Virus record (IMG/VR): IMGVR_UViG_3300036802_000027
Span: 918 to 64,917 of that record
Reading direction: 5' to 3' (one strand)
DNA from: a virus
Taxonomy: Duplodnaviria > Caudoviricetes
Length of the DNA: 64,000 nucleotides
Position 1 is the stretch's first letter, and each line of letters starts with the position of its first letter. Below are positions 2,959 to 57,405 of this stretch, in pieces. The notes under the pieces were generated by a model, which searched no databases, was not told the origin of the DNA, and saw only the letters and a list, made by a program, of their open reading frames with translations. Position numbers and translations under genes: made by a program.

Positions 2959-5900
2959 AACCCCTTCACTCCCAACGTCTGCGCTCGTGTGGCTACGCGT
3001 GCACGCTCGTCATATAGCGTTGTGATATCTGCTTTATCCGTCAGCTCAACGTCATTAACGCTCATGTCGATGTGATTCGTAATAGACGTTGTATTACTTA
3101 CACCACTGACTGACGGAGTTGCTAACGCATTACCGTTGAGCAATCCGAATAACGTCGCCTGTTGCGCGCTGTTTAGAATCATTTCACCAGCATGCGCAAT
3201 TACTGGAACAGCCGATCCGCTCGGCCCTTCGACTACGCCGCCTACTTTAAACGCCTGCAATTTACCGGTATCCTTCGTAATTCCGTACTGCTTACGAAGC
3301 TCCTCGTTACGAGCTGCTAATCGCGCCGCCTCCGACGTGTTTCCGCTAGCCTTCGCCGCTGTCCACGCGTCCTTGTTTGCGTTATACTCCGCAAGGTCAG
3401 AATCGCCTTGTGCCGCTGCTTTCACGGTGGTCAGCGTTGCCATTTTCGCATTGTATTCGGACACAAATGAGTCAAGCTGCGTAAGGATAGTCGCGTTAGC
3501 TGTAGCGCTTTGGTCAACGCGAAATGCGGAAACTGCTGCCTCTATCGTTTTAATGTCGCCACTATACTCGTCAAAGGCGGATTTCAACGCGTCATACTGC
3601 TTAGTTGTCGCATCCTTCTCCGCGTCGAACGCGTGAGTCTGCGTATCCTTCTCTTCTTGCAGCGCCGTCTTCTGCGCAGTCAACTCCGCTTTACGTAACT
3701 CGCGTTCGTGGTCAAGAATCATTTTATCGCGGTCTATAATCGCCTGTTCTCGTTCAGCAATACCGCCCGGTCCGACTGCGGATGCGAGTTCGTCGATGCG
3801 GGCGTTCTTCTCGCGTAGTTGCGTCTCGTAATCGATCTCCGAGTTCTGCTCCGCTTCTTTAGCGATGAGGTCGTCGATTGCCTTAATCTTCGCATCCTGT
3901 GCGGACACAAACGCGACTTTACGTTCTTCAATCGCGGCAAGGTCGGCTTTCTTCGCGTCGTCAATTGCGGCTTTCTGTTTCTTAACGAGCGCTTCCGCTA
4001 GTTTCTCCGTTTTCTCAACGAGTCCTTTTCGCGCTTGGTAAATCTCTTCGTCTGCCTTCTCGTAGTACTCCGAATCCATCTTGTATTTATCACGCAGCTT
4101 CGTCCAGGCTTCGAGTTTATACTTTGCAACTTCCGCTTCGGTAGCGCCGCTATCTTCGAGTCTACGCACTTCTTTAGCTATTAACTTTGTACGCTCACCG
4201 TAAAGCTCACGCTCCTGCGTCGCCGTTTCCTGCGCAACCTTTTTACGTGATTGGCGCACTTGGTCATCGGCAGATTTATACTCATCTGAATCCTTTTTAT
4301 AACGGTCACGTATGCGAGTCCATGCGGTTAATTTCGTCTGCGCAATCTGTAGCTCTGTCTTACCACTGTCCTCCATACGCTTCTCCTCTGCATCAATCCA
4401 TGTAGCTGAAAAGTCATAGCGTGCCTTAACGGTGTCTTCGTTCAACCGCTTAAGCTGTAGATTCAACGTTCGCGCGTCGTCTACGGATTCCTTCAAGAAT
4501 ACGGCGTGCTTCTTCTGCAGCGCCTCGTATTTCTTCATCTGATCCTCTGCAGATAGGTCGTAGATGTCTGATTGATAGCGAGTGGTTGCAAGGTCCGCGT
4601 CGTATGCTTTTTTACGTAGGTCGGCGGCTATCTCCGCAGGAGATTTCTCTTTCTTTGCCTTTTTTTCCTTCGCTGGCTTTTTACCCTTCGAAGTTTTAGC
4701 CTTTTTTTCCTTCGCTGGCTTCGAAAAGTCAACGCCGGAACCTGACGTTATTTTCCCCGTCGGAATTTCTCCGTTGCTTAACTTCGCGAGCGAGTCGTCC
4801 ATTTTACGCTGAGTAGCAGCGTATTCCTCCAAGCTTTTAGAAGCTTCCGATATTTTAGCGTCATTCTCGGCTTGCATCCGTTTGACACCTAAATCATAGA
4901 CACCTTGCGCGGGATTGTATATTCCAGTAGTCTGCGTCTTAACTGGACCTTCTGGGCCTATCTTTTTCGTGCCTCCGAGTGCAGCTTGCATGGCGCTAGA
5001 TAGTGCCTTGTAGTTCTTAATCTGTGCTTCAACCGAAGCACGCTGCGCTTCCGTCGTCACCTTTAAGTTGTTTATATATGTTTTAGACGAGCTAACATTT
5101 TGTGTTATAAAGTCGCGGTCTGCCTGTATCTGAGACGCCACCACATCAAGGTTGTCAATTCGAATACGGTTGTTATCATCCATAGTCGCGTTCAACTGCG
5201 GATACTCACCACGTAGTGCCTTAGTCAGCGCAATTAACTCTTGCTTCTGAGCTTCGTCAAGGCTCTGCGCGGACTGTAATTCGTTATAACGCTTGAGTGT
5301 TGTCTCCATCGCAGTGATCTTCTGATTCTTCGCTGCTAAGTCTGCTAACTCCGCTTCCTTTTCAGCAAACAACGCAGGTACGGAATTCTCAATAGCTGCG
5401 TTCATCTCATTGAGCTTTGCAGTCGCATCCTCTACGCCGTCATAGCCCATCCCACGTAGATTATCATCCATTTCTTCGAGTTGATCGTTGATATCCACCA
5501 TCTCGGCTATAAGTTGTGGAGTACCTTCGCCTATTTCCCCCAACGCTTCAATCTCGTTAATACGTTCCTGTAGTGCTGCGCGTTCGTCGAGCGCAGCCGA
5601 TAACTCTTCCGTCTTAACTCGTAACTCCTCTAATTCCGAAACAGTACGTGATGTAGGCGATTGATTCAGCGTTTCGTTAAGCGACTTCTGTGCTTCGTCA
5701 TGTTTCTTTACTGCATCGGATGCGGCGCTAGAGCTTGATACAAGTGCCGTAATACCCGCAACAACTAGCCCAACTGCCACAGAGACTGCGATCAAGACGG
5801 GAAAGGATATCTCAAGCGCCTTAATTGCAATTGTCACAGCACCTATTGTTGCGGCTAGTCCTAAAATTAATGGTACCGCCGCAGCAAACGCGATAATGGC

Positions 5901-7547
5901 GCTTTGTAGTATCGGATTTAGATTCGTAAATCCCGACAACATTCCGGTAATCATCTCAGTGACTCCGCGTATAGCCGGCGCAAATTTATCACCCACTACG
6001 ATTCCGACGCCTTCTAGTGCCGACTTCATCTCGGTGATAGCGCCCTTCAACGTGTCCATTTGCGTACCAGCTACGCGTTCAGCCGTTCCCCCTGCGTTCT
6101 CAAGCGATGCAGTATAGTTATCAAACGTAGACTGCCCGTTACTAATCAGTGTCAGTAGTCCAGCGGTGGCTTCGCGTCCGACTAGCGTTGCAGCTACATC
6201 TGCCTGTTGCACCTCTGTTAGTCGAGCAAATGCTCCCTGTAAATCGCCGATGATACTGGATAGTGGCTTAATATTACCAGCAGTGTCTGAGATACTTATG
6301 CCGAGCGTATCCATATACCCTGCGGCTTCTTTCGATGGTGACGCTAATGCAAGTAAGATCGCGCGCATTTGAGTTCCGGCCATCTCGCCCTTGATACCGG
6401 CGTTACTTAACTCACCTACGGCTGCGGTAGCCTCTTCTATACTGACGCCCATAGACGCAGCCACTGGCGCTAAATACTTCATAGCGAATCCTAAGTCCGT
6501 TACATCTGCGTTTGTATCGATACTAGACTTTGCTAATACGTCAACCAGTCGCCCCGTCTCTTCGGCAGCTAGTCCAAATCCGTTCAATACGGACGCGGTA
6601 ATATCCGCAGTCGTGGCGAGGTCGATCTGTCCAGCCGCCGCGAGCGAGAGAACGCCAGGCATTGCGGCGAGTATCTGATTGGTCTTCATTCCAGCTTGTG
6701 CTAGTAGAGCCTGCGCGTCCGCACTTTCAGCCGCGGTAAACTTCGTTGTCGCACCAAGCTTAAGCGCCTGATTACGTAAGCTTTCAAATTCGGCACCAGT
6801 AGCTTGCGAGATTGCTTTGACGTTAGCCATCGATTGCTCAAACTCCGCAGCAGCCGCTACCGACTTTGAGATAACCGCAGTCGTGGCGACAGCCAGTCCG
6901 ATATACGCAACGCCTAGCGCTTTTAGCTCTTTTTGTGCGGATGAGGCGCCGGTCGCACTACGCTCAATCGATTTTGTTACTTTATCGATATCTGCGTCAG
7001 TAGCGCCGAGCTCCTTCATTTCTGCGGTAACTTCCGCAATCTGACTCCGCAGTAATTCAGGATTAGCCTTTTTTAGCGACTTCTCTAGTGCGTCGATATC
7101 TGACGTGCGCACTCCGAGTTCCCTCAGATTGTCGCTGACACTTTTGAAACTAACCGCAGCTTTTCCGGCTCCATCTTCTAACGCCCATATCTTTTTTGCG
7201 GTGGAATCTGATGTTTGGGTCAGCCGCATCAAGGATGCTTCGGTGCTAGTAATCTGCTCCTGTAGTTTAGATTTCTGCGTGTCATTAAAGGTATTGTTGT
7301 AGGATTCTTTTAACTTTCCTAACTTCTGACGCTGCTGTTCTATCTTGATATTAGTGATTTCCAGCGTAGCTGCTAGAGGCGCAATCTTCTCCTTAACCGC
7401 ACCTAATCGCGCAAAGTCCGCCGCTGCCTGTTTCCCCTGCACACCTAACTCTTTAGCTTTCGCTTTCGCCTTATCGATACCTTCGTTAAACCCCGACACA
7501 TCAGCCGTAATTCGTGCAGATATCACGCCAACACTTGTAGATTCCAT
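2955..7547 (-). CDS. tail tape measure protein (TP901 family)
   Basis: ~1530 aa helical protein, TP901 core 'FEQSMANVKAIS...ALKLGATTKFTA'; start moved to ATG 7547 after GAGGTGAGG. Confidence 0.95.
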   Translation of the reverse strand: MESTSVGVISARITADVSGFNEGIDKAKAKAKELGVQGKQAAADFARLGAVKEKIAPLAATLEITNIKIEQQRQKLGKLKESYNNTFNDTQKSKLQEQITSTEASLMRLTQTSDSTAKKIWALEDGAGKAAVSFKSVSDNLRELGVRTSDIDALEKSLKKANPELLRSQIAEVTAEMKELGATDADIDKVTKSIERSATGASSAQKELKALGVAYIGLAVATTAVISKSVAAAAEFEQSMANVKAISQATGAEFESLRNQALKLGATTKFTAAESADAQALLAQAGMKTNQILAAMPGVLSLAAAGQIDLATTADITASVLNGFGLAAEETGRLVDVLAKSSIDTNADVTDLGFAMKYLAPVAASMGVSIEEATAAVGELSNAGIKGEMAGTQMRAILLALASPSKEAAGYMDTLGISISDTAGNIKPLSSIIGDLQGAFARLTEVQQADVAATLVGREATAGLLTLISNGQSTFDNYTASLENAGGTAERVAGTQMDTLKGAITEMKSALEGVGIVVGDKFAPAIRGVTEMITGMLSGFTNLNPILQSAIIAFAAAVPLILGLAATIGAVTIAIKALEISFPVLIAVSVAVGLVVAGITALVSSSSAASDAVKKHDEAQKSLNETLNQSPTSRTVSELEELRVKTEELSAALDERAALQERINEIEALGEIGEGTPQLIAEMVDINDQLEEMDDNLRGMGYDGVEDATAKLNEMNAAIENSVPALFAEKEAELADLAAKNQKITAMETTLKRYNELQSAQSLDEAQKQELIALTKALRGEYPQLNATMDDNNRIRIDNLDVVASQIQADRDFITQNVSSSKTYINNLKVTTEAQRASVEAQIKNYKALSSAMQAALGGTKKIGPEGPVKTQTTGIYNPAQGVYDLGVKRMQAENDAKISEASKSLEEYAATQRKMDDSLAKLSNGEIPTGKITSGSGVDFSKPAKEKKAKTSKGKKPAKEKKAKKEKSPAEIAADLRKKAYDADLATTRYQSDIYDLSAEDQMKKYEALQKKHAVFLKESVDDARTLNLQLKRLNEDTVKARYDFSATWIDAEEKRMEDSGKTELQIAQTKLTAWTRIRDRYKKDSDEYKSADDQVRQSRKKVAQETATQERELYGERTKLIAKEVRRLEDSGATEAEVAKYKLEAWTKLRDKYKMDSEYYEKADEEIYQARKGLVEKTEKLAEALVKKQKAAIDDAKKADLAAIEERKVAFVSAQDAKIKAIDDLIAKEAEQNSEIDYETQLREKNARIDELASAVGPGGIAEREQAIIDRDKMILDHERELRKAELTAQKTALQEEKDTQTHAFDAEKDATTKQYDALKSAFDEYSGDIKTIEAAVSAFRVDQSATANATILTQLDSFVSEYNAKMATLTTVKAAAQGDSDLAEYNANKDAWTAAKASGNTSEAARLAARNEELRKQYGITKDTGKLQAFKVGGVVEGPSGSAVPVIAHAGEMILNSAQQATLFGLLNGNALATPSVSGVSNTTSITNHIDMSVNDVELTDKADITTLYDERARVATRAQTLGVKGL

Positions 7548-41636: not shown

Positions 41637-41760
41637 TCATACGTCCGTGACGCGGTAGTAACGGTGAGTCGGCGTATCTCACATCTGTGGTAACTACGCT
41701 AATGTCGTAGCCTGGCGGGAACCTTTCCGCCCTCGTTACTACCGCGTAACCGACGTATGA
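41637..41760 (-). ncRNA. candidate structured RNA (four-way junction) in SSB leader
   Basis: 9-bp plus 14-bp perfect closing stems enclosing three hairpins. Confidence 0.6.
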
Positions 41761-54904: not shown

Positions 54905-55168
54905 TTACGTTTCTTTAAAATACTCGTCGAGCAACTCGTTTATGATAACGGTCATCGCGCCACGTTCTGCGCTGATTTCTTCGTCAATCTTAAGCATCAA
55001 GTCCTTACGTATCCAGAACGTACGGCGTCCGTGTGTTTCCTCAAACTTCGGCTTTGGCGTGCGTTTGCGCTTGGGCGATGGCTCTGCGTTGATAAGCTGC
55101 GTGTGCACTGCGGACTTTGGACCGTTTTTTATTTTATTCTTAAGCTCATCCATTTTATTTTGAGACAC
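54905..55168 (-). CDS. small centromere-binding partner of ParA (ribbon-helix-helix type)
   Basis: 87 aa coupled to parA; 'RRTFWIRKDLMLKID...IINELLDEYF'. Confidence 0.75.
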   Translation of the reverse strand: MSQNKMDELKNKIKNGPKSAVHTQLINAEPSPKRKRTPKPKFEETHGRRTFWIRKDLMLKIDEEISAERGAMTVIINELLDEYFKET

Positions 55169-55922
55169 GTTCGATCAACTCCTTAACAAATTCTCGATAT
55201 TGTGTAACCGCGCTGTTTAATTCGGGGTTATCAATAAATCCGTTTATACTGATTCGTCCGGCGGAAGCTGTACGTGTTAGAACAGTATTAAAGCACAGGT
55301 CTCCGTACTCATCGCCAACTAGCTGCAGCAATACCTTATTATCCGTACGTCTTGCGTCAATCATTCCGCGTAGTATCCCAGCGACTTCCATTTTTACGCC
55401 GTCTACCTCTTGTACGTGAATACACGTCTCCAAGAATCGCGATAACGCCGTATAACAGAATTTACTCGCTTCGAACATAGCGATAACATAGTCGGATGCA
55501 GCTAACGCGTTTATCGTCTGCTCTCCGAGCGCTGGCGGCGTATCAATAATGATATAATCGTAATCGTCCCGAATTGGTTTAAGTGTATCTGCTAATACTA
55601 ACGACATGTTTCCACGATAAGGCTCGCTGTAGAGCCATCGCGAAAAACTAGCAAGGATGTCGTTTGCGGTTAGGATGTGCAGAGAGTCTGAAATCCTATG
55701 TATATAATTCCGCGCATCCTGGGCCTTTAACGCCTCGAAAATAGTGTTATCCTGGAAATCATATATATCCTGTTGCGTTAACAATTCAGTAAGATTCCCC
55801 TGTGAATCCATATCTACTGCTAAAACCTTGTATTTCTCGCTCAATAGGTATGCTACTACACCGGATGTTGTTGTCTTTGAGCTACCACCCTTCTGTATCC
55901 CAAACGTTATAATTTTAGCCAA
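55155..55922 (-). CDS. parA: ParA/Soj family partition ATPase (type Ib)
   Basis: deviant Walker A 'QKGGSSKTTT', 'VDMDSQGN', 'IIDTPP'. Confidence 0.95.
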   Translation of the reverse strand: MAKIITFGIQKGGSSKTTTSGVVAYLLSEKYKVLAVDMDSQGNLTELLTQQDIYDFQDNTIFEALKAQDARNYIHRISDSLHILTANDILASFSRWLYSEPYRGNMSLVLADTLKPIRDDYDYIIIDTPPALGEQTINALAASDYVIAMFEASKFCYTALSRFLETCIHVQEVDGVKMEVAGILRGMIDARRTDNKVLLQLVGDEYGDLCFNTVLTRTASAGRISINGFIDNPELNSAVTQYREFVKELIERVSK

Positions 55923-55974
55923 CCTAACTCCCCCTTATAGTAGAAGCGTTTAATCTAGTAACTAGTATATAATA

Positions 55975-56030
55975 CGTTTATGTACATGTAAACATTTCCG
56001 TAGACGTAAACGTAGTTGTTTACGTTTCTT
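55975..56030. promoter_or_regulatory. parA promoter with parS-like GTTTACGT repeats
   Basis: minus TTTACA-17-TATACT; ACGTAAAC 56004-56011 and GTTTACGT 56018-56025. Confidence 0.6.
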
Positions 56031-56109
56031 CGATTTCTGAGACATGTCGCGATAAGATATATGAGTTAACTATATTATTGTGAATTATTCAAACGGTGTA
56101 AATTTCACA

Positions 56110-56860
56110 ATAATCACTGCTGTATTGTATCTAGTTACTCCTTGTTGCTCGCTCCTATCTCCTGTACCTTGTCCTGTTTCACCACGGTTTAAAGATGCCG
56201 GCCTTTGTCCGGTTCCTCATCGTTCACGTCACGGAATGGATAACGAAATTCACGTTAACCACACCGTTCGGTTCACGCTGCGGCTGCTCTTACTACCTAC
56301 TACACATCGCCTTCAACGTTTTTAGGTTGTGGAATTTTTCTGTTGACTTTAAGGGTTTAATCGGCACGCTGGAATGGCTTGGCTTAGGAAACGGCTACAG
56401 ATAACCAACCCGCGCCTACACGAGTAAAAAGTATAGGCGCAAAGGTCGGGATATCGTACGTGACTCGCCGTATAAGGCAGGATGAGTGTTCCGTGTACCC
56501 ATGCTCGATATACGGTCACTACGACCGTTAGCGTCTTTTTACTCGTAAAGCTGATCCTACGAGCTGTGTTGCTTGTTATGACGCTACCTCCTCGCTTACG
56601 CGACTCAGACTACCACCAGACCGTTTATGGGCGTCCTCCCCTAGTCGTACTCGGCGTGAGCATGGTTACGCCTTGGTGAGTACACGCTGTCCGTCATGTT
56701 TCAACGATTTATGGCATCGGCTACAGCTAAACCTTTAGCATTTTTAACGTGTTCTCGCTGCTCTCCACGTTGGCGCGTCCTACTTTAGACAATAGGAAAC
56801 TAGACCCTCGGTACCTCGTTTTTTCGCGAGATCCGGAGTGGCGCCGTTTATTTAGTTTTA
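56110..56860 (-). ncRNA. candidate large (~750 nt) structured non-coding RNA
   Basis: no credible ORF; many helices, GNRA loop and G-U pairs consistent with minus-strand RNA; two long-range loop complementarities (12 bp and 8 bp); ends approximate. Confidence 0.6.
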
Positions 56861-56876
56861 GGTATGTAATTAAACG

Positions 56877-56925
56877 AAAAGGAGCCCCAATCCCATCCGC
56901 ATATTAACGAAGGAATCGAGGCTCC
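56877..56925 (-). terminator. intrinsic terminator
   Basis: 14-bp stem with three G-U pairs on minus strand followed by UUUUCGUUU. Confidence 0.75.
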
Positions 56926-57110
56926 ACATATATCATGACAATTCCCCATATAGCCTTGCCCTCTTGTGGCAAAAATGGTATGATGGGTACATCAAAGTCA
57001 TTGTTTAAGTGTCGCCTGTTTCTGTCCGTTCGTGCGGATAGTAAGCAGCATCGGGTTGGTAGCCCGAGTCGCCTTGAAACAGTGACTATTTTGTTTTCCA
57101 TTTAATTCTA
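56926..57110 (-). ncRNA. candidate ~240-nt structured RNA ending at the 56877 terminator
   Basis: multibranch CUGUUUC/GAAACAG helix enclosing two hairpins; sigma-A promoter TTGACG-18-TATATT at 57222-57193. Confidence 0.45.
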
Positions 57111-57332
57111 TGAATCTAGCATAACACAATCTACTGGTTCGTGGAAGTACGACATTTAACAACGTAATTCAAGGACGATTCCTTCCGATATTAATATACA
57201 TCAACGTATACGTGTACGTCAATACAATCGTAAATGTTTACGTAAATATCTACGCAGGAAAACCATTAATATTGTAGTATTCTTCGTAATTAGACGTAGC
57301 ATCTGACGGTTAATTTGTTTATAACTAAACGC

Positions 57333-57385
57333 AAAAAAGGCGCAGACTCAAACGGAATCACTTTCCGCGAGAACTGCGCTTTTTA
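57333..57385. terminator. bidirectional terminator
   Basis: GCGCAG...CTGCGC stem with A- and T-tracts on both sides. Confidence 0.7.
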
Positions 57386-57405
57386 TTTCATTATTTTTCA
57401 CTTGT

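Follow-up and report, generated by a model that had tools for sequence, protein, structure and literature searches.

A candidate RNA-based replicon under antisense attenuation control in a likely phage-plasmid and small Paenibacillus plasmids

What fills the long gene-free gap upstream of parA in the virus record IMGVR_UViG_3300036802_000027? The DNA analysed here (the window) is a stretch of 64,000 nt, nearly all of this 64,917-bp IMG/VR record, which has direct terminal repeats and is rated complete. The gap (55923-57405, 1,483 nt) is bordered by parA on one side and by an open reading frame (ORF) of 222 aa on the other. A first-pass annotation, made from the letters of the window, had placed in it, at 56110-56860, a large pseudoknotted non-coding RNA (ncRNA) on the minus strand, and had proposed either a ROOL/GOLLD-type class or, alternatively, a replication-control or primer RNA of the plasmid state. 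Its statement that the region has no credible ORF holds, since the longest ORF in the gap does not exceed 81 aa. We found that the gap contains a conserved minus-strand element, composed of a ~230-nt leader and a ~670-nt structured RNA (RNA-2), which is shared with small Paenibacillus plasmids. From context and precedent we infer that this element is probably a plasmid-type, RNA-based replicon of a phage-plasmid and of these small plasmids, and that it is under antisense attenuation control.

Extent and homologues of the element

A blastn search against plasmids supplied the first homologue, a single partial match to a complete plasmid of Paenibacillus sp. RUD330 (circular, 8,285 bp), which a relaxed alignment stretched to nearly 1 kb. 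With a 20-mer of the invariant block of RNA-2 we found a 6,752-nt P. antarcticus contig and a 13-kb metagenome contig, and searches of Paenibacillaceae genomes with BLAST and a covariance model (R1) added copies in genomes G068, G135, G175, G005 and G256, the last being the only further variant obtained in genus-level covariance-model searches around RUD330 and G135. The carrier in G068 is an 8,374-nt unit present in three tandem copies on one contig (L056, G068:C6), for which the simplest explanation is a small plasmid joined into a concatemer during assembly, and the carriers in G135 and G175 are contigs of 8,631 and 12,906 nt. Full-length homologues gave nhmmer E values of 1e-198 to 1e-251. 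The copy in G005 is chromosomal and partial (L033/L055, G005:C1, ~2,509,800-2,510,130); it runs from the attenuator to the first ~280 nt of RNA-2 and is probably the remnant of an integrated element. Exact-pattern scans with two words of the invariant loop (18 and 20 nt) and with two further motifs also returned L021-L024, L026, L027, L029 and L059-L063, all chance matches that were rejected by BLAST or nhmmer.

A profile of seven full-length copies (nhmmer) places the conserved element at 57170-56178 on the minus strand, ~990 nt in all. The original boundaries therefore need correction at both ends: conservation begins ~310 nt further 5', and the ~70 nt at 56110-56178 are not conserved. As a consequence, the 5' third of the element, which includes the leader, the antisense promoter and the attenuator, had been missed.

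Searches among known RNAs and phages returned little. At gathering thresholds, an Rfam cmscan of the window detected only a skipping-rope RNA, which lies outside the element. No Rfam family was found in the element even at E ≤ 10, and none in five plasmid homologues at E ≤ 0.1. The cmscan check thus points to no known family, the proposed ROOL/GOLLD membership is not borne out, and the lack of matches at such permissive thresholds indicates that the element is not a ROOL, GOLLD or OLE RNA, a group I or group II intron, or RNAI. It is a new RNA family. A blastn search (word size 11) with the whole gap against the 50,697 phage records of INPHARED gave no match. Covariation among homologues from related phages had also been suggested as a check; compensatory changes were present across seven sequences. 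The phages with a related ParA (L003-L020) lack the element.

RNA-2 is a pseudoknotted RNA supported by covariation

The following features of RNA-2 were recognised:

56198-56869, minus strand: RNA-2, ~670 nt, follows the attenuator; the first of its blocks is a conserved UUACAUA
56838-56805, minus strand: hairpin 2, followed by UUUCCUAUUGUC
56771-56746, minus strand: invariant-loop hairpin, AACGU-GGAGAGCAGCGAGAAC-ACGUU with a 16-nt loop, the best-conserved block
56683-56647, minus strand: two-step hairpin, the loop of which pairs with 56506-56499
56603-56592, minus strand: GNRA hairpin
56585-56530 and 56528-56512, minus strand: helices
56440-56412, minus strand: hairpin
56267-56231, minus strand: 3' hairpin, followed by GGAACCGG (56216-56209) and a terminal small hairpin (56212-56198)
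56665-56658 with 56506-56499, minus strand: long-range pseudoknot between loop CCAUGCUC and GAGCAUGG

RNAalifold, run on five and then on seven sequences, predicted long-range helices in which compensatory changes are numerous. A curated structure with 17 helices and 84 pairs, the 8-bp pseudoknot among them, was then evaluated on the seven-sequence alignment. Standard pairs occupied 91.0% of the cells, as compared to 36-44% when the partners were slid by 1-3 columns, and changes on both sides were seen in 42 of the 84 pairs, against 6-15 in the slid controls. The covariation score was 0.52 (~0.1 after sliding), and none of 500 shuffles reached any of the observed measures. The contrast with these controls is somewhat inflated because the structure was partly derived from the consensus of the same sequences, but the margin is still large. 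Folding of the single sequence is slightly better than that of shuffles for the minus strand (z -1.64) and no better for the plus strand (z -0.05), so the case for structure rests on the homologues.

The minus strand was correctly chosen, as judged from the orientation of promoter and terminator and from G-U pairs in the covarying helices, which would be A-C on the other strand. All listed inverted and direct repeats are present in the window at the positions given for them. The hairpin at 56440-56412 and the GNRA hairpin at 56603-56592 are supported across seven homologues, the inner stem GGCGU/ACGCC is paired in 34 of 35 cells, and CUCGUA/UACGAG is paired in all 42, with up to four pair types. 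The 8-bp pairing of a loop with a distant segment (56658-56665 with 56499-56506) is found in 56 of 56 cells in the seven sequences, with covariation at four positions (A-U to C-G, G-C to A-U, C-G to U-A and U-A to C-G).

Three stems were only partly upheld. GUACUC/GAGUAC is visible by eye in single-sequence folds, where other members have swapped it for CGAGC/GCUCG, ACACUC/GAGUGU, CGAUC/GAUCG or CUACUCC/GGAGUAG, but it pairs in 19 of 42 cells in MAFFT columns; since these columns misalign the stem, it was read from the single-sequence folds. The outer stem AGCGUC/GACGCU can be recognised by eye in unaligned sequences only (12 of 42 cells in MAFFT columns). For ACGGUC/GACCGU (56528-56512) the proposed register fails, with 14 of 42 cells paired, and RNAalifold shifts instead to a neighbouring register, where a 5-bp hairpin covaries and 77% of the cells pair. 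A 12-bp pseudoknot between 56420-56431 and 56535-56546, perfect in the window, is not maintained in the homologues (41 of 77 cells) and probably due to chance, and neither the CUGUAGCCG repeat nor the third copy of CAGCGUG is conserved in them. Still, the covariation in seven homologues supports a large pseudoknotted ncRNA on the minus strand upstream of parA; we have very high confidence that this structured RNA exists, on the strand first proposed and with most of the helices first noticed.

At one shared spot an extra small hairpin is present, GGCAC-GAAA-GUGCC in RUD330 and GCAC-GUAG-UGC in G005; small-hairpin insertions of this kind are typical of RNA evolution. The 3' hairpin covaries as well, including the copies in G256, where a complete inverted copy with compensatory changes lies upstream of the leader (L058, 1076-1131, minus strand). 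At another locus (L028, 8460-8539, plus strand) a direct partial copy of the 3' end of the element follows the par genes, and the duplication apparently brackets the par cassette.

The leader carries predicted convergent promoters and an attenuator

Upstream of RNA-2, the leader region contains the following features:

57118-57146, minus strand: predicted sense promoter, -35 TTCCAC (57146-57141), 17-nt spacer, extended -10 TGTTATGCT (57126-57118), predicted start ~57110
56876-57110, minus strand: leader (RNA-1), ~230 nt, with 5' fold, antisense-promoter region and attenuator
56956-56984, plus strand: convergent antisense promoter from the promoter scan, TTGCCC, 17 nt, TG-n-TATGAT, predicted start ~56991
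56991-57098, plus strand: predicted antisense RNA, ~105 nt, complementary to the 5' fold of the leader, folding energy -41.8 kcal/mol
56876-56925, minus strand: attenuator T1 (hairpin 56925-56881), GGAGCCUCGAUUCC...GGGAUUGGGGCUCC followed by UUUUC

The extended -10 (TGnTAnnnT) aligns at the position of the sense promoter in all homologues. A consensus promoter scan picked 57222-57193 instead, outside the conserved position. The leader starts A-rich and forms a three-way 5' fold, in which GCC...GGC closes a GCGRC/GCUGC helix and GGG...CCC and CCG...CGG hairpins; an invariant GAAACAGGC ends this fold. RNAalifold on 10 leaders showed that the fold covaries, with double changes in 18 of 29 pairs and four pair types in the CCGN...NCGG stem. 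Equivalents of the antisense promoter, read by eye from the alignments, are TTGATA-17-TATAAT in P. antarcticus and G068 and TTGCCC-17-TATTAT in RUD330. The antisense RNA is predicted to end at a terminator consisting of a stem (57067-57087) and a U-rich AUUUUGUUUU, and the corresponding A-rich run and hairpin at the 5' end of the sense transcript are kept in all homologues. The attenuator hairpin (-19 to -33 kcal/mol) and its U tail occur in 10 of 10 leaders, and its pairs covary.

Homologous leaders precede rep genes

Positions ~49-403 of the profile also match three Paenibacillaceae loci, in genomes G158, G227 and G245 (nhmmer). The shared part comprises the leader, hairpin 2 and the UUUCCUAUUGCC stretch, and at these loci a Shine-Dalgarno site and a long ORF come next. 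Two of these ORFs (G158 and G227, ~484-500 aa) match Pfam PF03090 Replicase (E 1e-5), and NCBI gives the name 'replication initiation protein' to the clusters to which they belong, found in Cohnella sp. CFH 77786, P. luteus, P. prosopidis and Paenibacillus sp. GCM10012307. Because a homologous leader precedes both, rep genes and RNA-2 lie behind the same control region. Among the seven RNA-type elements, RNA-2 takes the position of the rep ORF, and no ORF follows the leader.

The Rep proteins encoded behind the homologous leaders have no solved relative by sequence and no NCBIfam match. In the five genomes with RNA-type elements we found no homologue of this Rep and no PF03090 match, while the positive control recovered G158 and G227. 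A helper Rep of the PF03090-type family that acts in trans is thus not seen.

Two variants of this arrangement were noticed. The third locus (L054, G245:C10, ~6900-7200) has the leader followed by a 574-aa ORF of no known family, and the single TTTACATA that is conserved between attenuator and hairpin 2 is expanded there to about seven iterons, T(T/A)ACATTTGGA; this expansion hints that the TTTACATA motif is a protein-binding site. The element in G175 (L051, G175:C8) carries a ~250-nt insertion (3498-3728, minus strand) just after hairpin 2, at the exact position where rep starts in the Rep-bearing relatives. It contains AAGGAG and then a 76-aa ORF, for which no family match and no similarity to Rep was found.

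Carriers and genomic context

Other than the phage and the metagenome contig, the carriers are very small replicons. Their genes encode Xer- or resolvase-type recombinases, MerR-like helix-turn-helix (HTH) and coiled-coil proteins, toxin-antitoxin parts and hypothetical proteins, and no protein is common to all. Except for a 155-aa HTH_36 protein in G068, no member of a canonical Rep Pfam family was found in the carriers. A MerR-like HTH and coiled-coil protein (PHROG 3470, function unknown) is encoded near the element in four of seven full-length carriers according to BLAST, and is absent from the window. A fifth carrier, G068, has a 209-aa MerR_1 protein by Pfam (L056, 2614-3243). The MerR-like protein could be a regulator or partition-related. 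The four BLAST-detected loci are:

L002, 3908-4585: MerR-like protein
L050, 3189-4109: MerR-like protein
L025, 5754-6359: MerR-like protein
L028, 5333-5878: MerR-like protein

The neighbourhood of the element also bears on its role. In G175 the order is the same as in the phage, with the RNA element followed by a ParA (45% identical) and a small ribbon-helix-helix (RHH) omega-like protein. Sister phages with ParA proteins that are 82% and 74% identical have no element; instead, a gene for a winged-helix HTH_36 protein lies directly upstream of their parA. Replication initiators commonly contain the HTH_36 winged-helix domain. The complete phage record has no gene for a tyrosine or serine recombinase (PF00589, PF00239), and the phage is likely a phage-plasmid. 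Of the roles that had been offered for the RNA, replication control or priming in the plasmid state is the one that best fits this context of Rep-less plasmids, homology to rep leaders and a phage without integrase. Finally, in G068, P. antarcticus and G135 an excess of G on the RNA-sense strand extends over the entire circle. This weak strand bias fits unidirectional leading-strand synthesis that continues from the RNA, although gene orientation could give the same bias.

Comparison with known replicons

By analogy, the closest functional precedent is offered by mycobacteriophages. About one-fifth of the cluster A mycobacteriophages carry parABS in place of the integration cassette, most of these lack repA, and in the non-RepA phages (RedRock, Alma, LadyBird and others) an ncRNA region close to parABS is necessary and sufficient for plasmid-like replication (PMC7157519). 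These phages resemble the present one in being temperate, in having a partition system with a non-coding region beside parA and in lacking an integration cassette and a Rep gene, with related phages carrying a Rep-type gene instead. However, the mycobacteriophage region is transcribed and its function was demonstrated, whereas transcription of the present element is predicted from sequence and its function is deduced. The ncRNA regions deleted there measure 400-500 bp and are directed away from parA, while the present element is ~1 kb and co-directional with parA. Furthermore, an antisense/attenuator leader or a covariation-backed fold is not described for these phages (PMC7157519).

In its organisation the leader resembles Inc18-type attenuation systems (RNAIII/repR of pIP501; also pAMbeta1 and pT181). 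In pIP501, a 136-nt RNAIII stops the repR transcript inside a 329-nt leader (PMC4981023). In these systems, as in the element, a sense promoter precedes a leader of a few hundred nt, inside which a convergent promoter is placed so as to yield an antisense RNA of ~100-140 nt, and an intrinsic terminator lies before the regulated replication function. Moreover, relatives of the present leader precede rep genes, and the G175 carrier encodes a ParA with an RHH omega-like partner. The difference is that the regulated unit is here a ~670-nt structured RNA and not a rep ORF; in addition, no CopR-like repressor was identified.

In ColE1, which is limited to Gammaproteobacteria, the RNA II pre-primer is controlled by the antisense RNA I (PMC8683028). 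Similarities are replication without a plasmid Rep (deduced for the present carriers), a long folded sense RNA, carriers that are small multicopy-type plasmids, and an antisense RNA of ~100 nt, predicted in our case, which comes from a convergent promoter and is complementary to the 5' end of the sense RNA. In contrast to RNA-2, RNA II is ~550 nt long and control is exerted through its refolding, with no intrinsic terminator. A comparable refolding can be drawn for the element: leader positions 57072-57057 (GCGACUCGGGCUACCA) are complementary to RNA-2 positions 56615-56600 (UGGUAGUCUGAGUCGC), with 16 of 16 pairs including two G-U. This complementarity overlaps the GNRA hairpin and thus defines an alternative fold; it beats shuffles in only three of seven sequences, with differing registers, and may represent a ColE1-like refolding switch or chance.

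The Bacillus subtilis plasmid pLS20 has a ~1.1-kb origin without a rep gene beside alp7AR, which replicates in Bacillus, contains DnaA boxes and works by an unknown mechanism; origins of this type are reported only in Bacillus (PMC8557374). The element is similar in being a module of about this size in Bacillota plasmids without a typical rep, next to partition genes and with DnaA-box-like sites. It differs in that no RNA is implicated in the pLS20 account (PMC8557374).

Proposed mechanism

The organisation of the element suggests how it would act. A minus-strand transcript would start at the promoter near 57120, and its first ~230 nt would fold into the target of the ~105-nt antisense RNA made from the convergent promoter inside the leader. 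The antisense RNA would meet the 5' fold in proportion to copy number, and a nascent transcript bound in this way would terminate at 56925-56881. Transcripts that escape would extend into the ~670-nt pseudoknotted RNA-2, an initiator or pre-primer in cis with which host enzymes would begin DNA synthesis near the 3' hairpin with its DnaA-box-like arms. Initiation could proceed from a ColE1-like pre-primer, on which host nucleases and then a host polymerase would act, or by opening of the DnaA-box-like hairpin region. We infer transcription, attenuation by antisense binding and the start of replication by RNA-2 alike: conserved signals and the homology to rep leaders suggest promoter firing, antisense binding and termination, and context and precedent suggest the initiation of DNA synthesis, while the fold of RNA-2 is backed by covariation.

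That the element has a replication role of some kind, at the RNA or the DNA level, we hold with good confidence. An RNA-based origin is the most likely form of it, because a large folded RNA lies behind an antisense/terminator control region that otherwise precedes plasmid replication genes. More tentatively, and without calling it probable, we suggest that the element represents a new protein-free class of Bacillota replicon. An ancestral Rep replicon may have kept its leader and swapped rep for a ~670-nt pseudoknotted RNA that initiates or primes replication with host enzymes, and that now drives both the plasmids and the phage-plasmid.

Several observations weigh against an RNA-based replicon. 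Within the leader, an antiterminator duplex of the 5' region with the 5' arm of the terminator reaches -21.9 kcal/mol in RUD330, -15.5 in the window and -6 to -16 elsewhere, in no common register; by these predicted energies antiterminator pairing is clear in RUD330, plausible in the window and not uniform in the family. The 155-aa HTH_36 protein of G068 is a possible hint of a Rep, and other small-plasmid proteins of unknown function, such as the MerR-like group, could be unrecognised Reps. The GC skew is uninformative in two of five replicons (RUD330 and G175). The phage encodes a family A DNA polymerase (PolA), a primase and a DnaB-type helicase for its own replication, so that a prophage replicon apart from these is plausible but not necessarily required. 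The precedents are also distant: the mycobacteriophages have Actinobacteria instead of Bacillota as hosts and gave no match in the blastn comparison with phage records, and ColE1 shares no sequence or Rfam match with the element, RNAI being included in Rfam. In pLS20 (NC_015148, 60000-65774), model R1 had its best hit at E 0.11, outside the origin, and nhmmer gave E 0.007 over 32 nt; with no significant match by either method inside the origin, homology to the pLS20 origin was rejected.

Alternative explanations

An alternative that we consider unlikely, though it deserves discussion, is that RNA-2 is a non-replicative structured RNA of mobile elements, used for anti-defence or host manipulation or similar to the ornate ROOL and GOLLD RNAs, behind a borrowed copy-control leader. 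Structure and conservation by themselves specify no function, the phage has replication genes of its own and also holds a skipping-rope RNA, and large ornate RNAs occur in Bacillota phages. Like ROOL and GOLLD, RNA-2 is a large multi-helix, pseudoknotted ncRNA of a Bacillota phage. However, it has no covariance-model match to them or to any other Rfam family, and it occupies a plasmid replicon slot, whereas ROOL and GOLLD lie in tRNA-rich phage regions. It is also difficult to reconcile a non-replicative role with the element being the sole feature common to all carriers, most of which are tiny replicons without a recognisable Rep. Furthermore, leaders of this type meter a rate-limiting replication factor, the present leader has homologues in front of rep genes, and what the sister phages carry in the same slot beside parA is a winged-helix gene.

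It is rather improbable that the element is an origin at the DNA level, in which hairpins and DnaA-box-like arms are double- or single-stranded DNA sites for host proteins and transcription only opens or activates the region, the RNA product having no role. The arms of the 3' hairpin are indeed inverted DnaA-box-like 9-mers, TTAACCACA/TTATCCATT on opposite strands in the window and TTACCCACA/TTATCCACT in P. antarcticus, and such 9-mers occur at this hairpin in six of eight homologues. The Rep-less 1.1-kb origin of pLS20 has DnaA boxes (PMC8557374), and the additional 3' hairpins, inverted in G256 and also present in L028, fit a DNA site as well. Against this, DnaA-box-like 9-mers are not enriched overall, and in G256 the hairpin is kept while the resemblance to DnaA boxes is lost. 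Moreover, compensatory changes occur in helices with halves 150-350 nt apart and in the loop-to-distant pseudoknot, and the frequent G-U pairs fit one strand only. Together, one-strand G-U pairs and long-range covariation indicate a folded single strand, most simply an RNA from the conserved promoter.

A decayed rep remnant or a long 5' untranslated leader of the downstream genes is very improbable: the leader is homologous to rep leaders, RNA-2 sits at the rep position and a same-strand gene lies 3' of the element in every carrier, but there is no conserved ORF, the element is conserved with covariation across replicons with unrelated flanks, the next gene varies among carriers (ParA, a 283-aa protein, a MerR-like protein), a strong terminator follows the element in L028, and parA has promoter-like sites of its own. 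A decayed rep gene was rejected because blastx of the seven elements against 49 Rep homologues gave a best E of 0.046 on the wrong strand, and nhmmer detected no RNA-2 match in the rep loci.

Significance

In the literature on Paenibacillus plasmid RNAs and on large plasmid-borne RNAs in Bacillota we found nothing that matches the element. Nor did we find a description of the combination seen here, an Inc18-style attenuation leader that drives a large structured RNA in place of rep and is common to small plasmids and a phage. An RNA-based origin would be a kind of replicon not yet described for this bacterial group; the RNA-only or Rep-less modules that we found described are those of the ColE1 relatives of Gammaproteobacteria and, functionally, of some mycobacteriophage prophages, along with pLS20, which has no rep.

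If the proposed role is correct, the swap of a protein for an RNA in a replicon could be viewed directly, with the same leader placed before rep or before a folded RNA. It would also explain how 'orphan' Paenibacillus plasmids without a Rep gene replicate, which is of use in plasmid typing, and would enlarge the set of large structured RNAs by one whose function can be tested. In addition, the element could be developed into a compact vector origin for Paenibacillus, for which genetic tools are scarce.

The phage and the flanks of the element

The phage, which is of the Paenibacillus type, encodes structural proteins, PolA, a Toprim primase, the DnaB-type helicase and its loader, ribonucleotide reductase, an amidase endolysin and an antirepressor. 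Between phage genes at 41656-41741 (minus strand) lies the skipping-rope RNA (Rfam RF02924; 58.9 bits, E 1.5e-11), a known small RNA motif of unknown function. Around the RNA element the following features were found:

55155-55922, minus strand: parA, 255 aa, Pfam AAA_31 (E 7e-35), also CbiA
54905-55168: gene of 87 aa 3' of parA, forming with it a partition module directly downstream of the element
56102-56074 and 55992-55964, minus strand: parA promoter-like sites (promoter scan)
57333-57400, minus strand: terminator-like hairpin that closes the upstream gene, a weak generic match in the permissive Rfam scan

The 222-aa upstream ORF has no Pfam, PHROG or NCBIfam match, and kinship of its product to the MerR-like plasmid protein was rejected (hhalign probability 0.1%).

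Clusters of inverted repeats of the ACGTAAAC/GTTTACGT type are present on both sides of the RNA element, at 55972-56025 and 57194-57254. Such repeats could be candidate operator or centromere sites for the small ParA partner, and their presence on both flanks suggests that the RNA module was inserted into such a region. One of them overlaps a promoter-like site of parA (55992-55964). In the interval that separates the RNA element from parA, an 18-nt palindrome, ATTATTGTGAATTATTCA / TGTAAATTTCACAATAAT (56074-56114), overlaps the other minus-strand promoter-like site (56102-56074), in what appears to be an operator-like arrangement.

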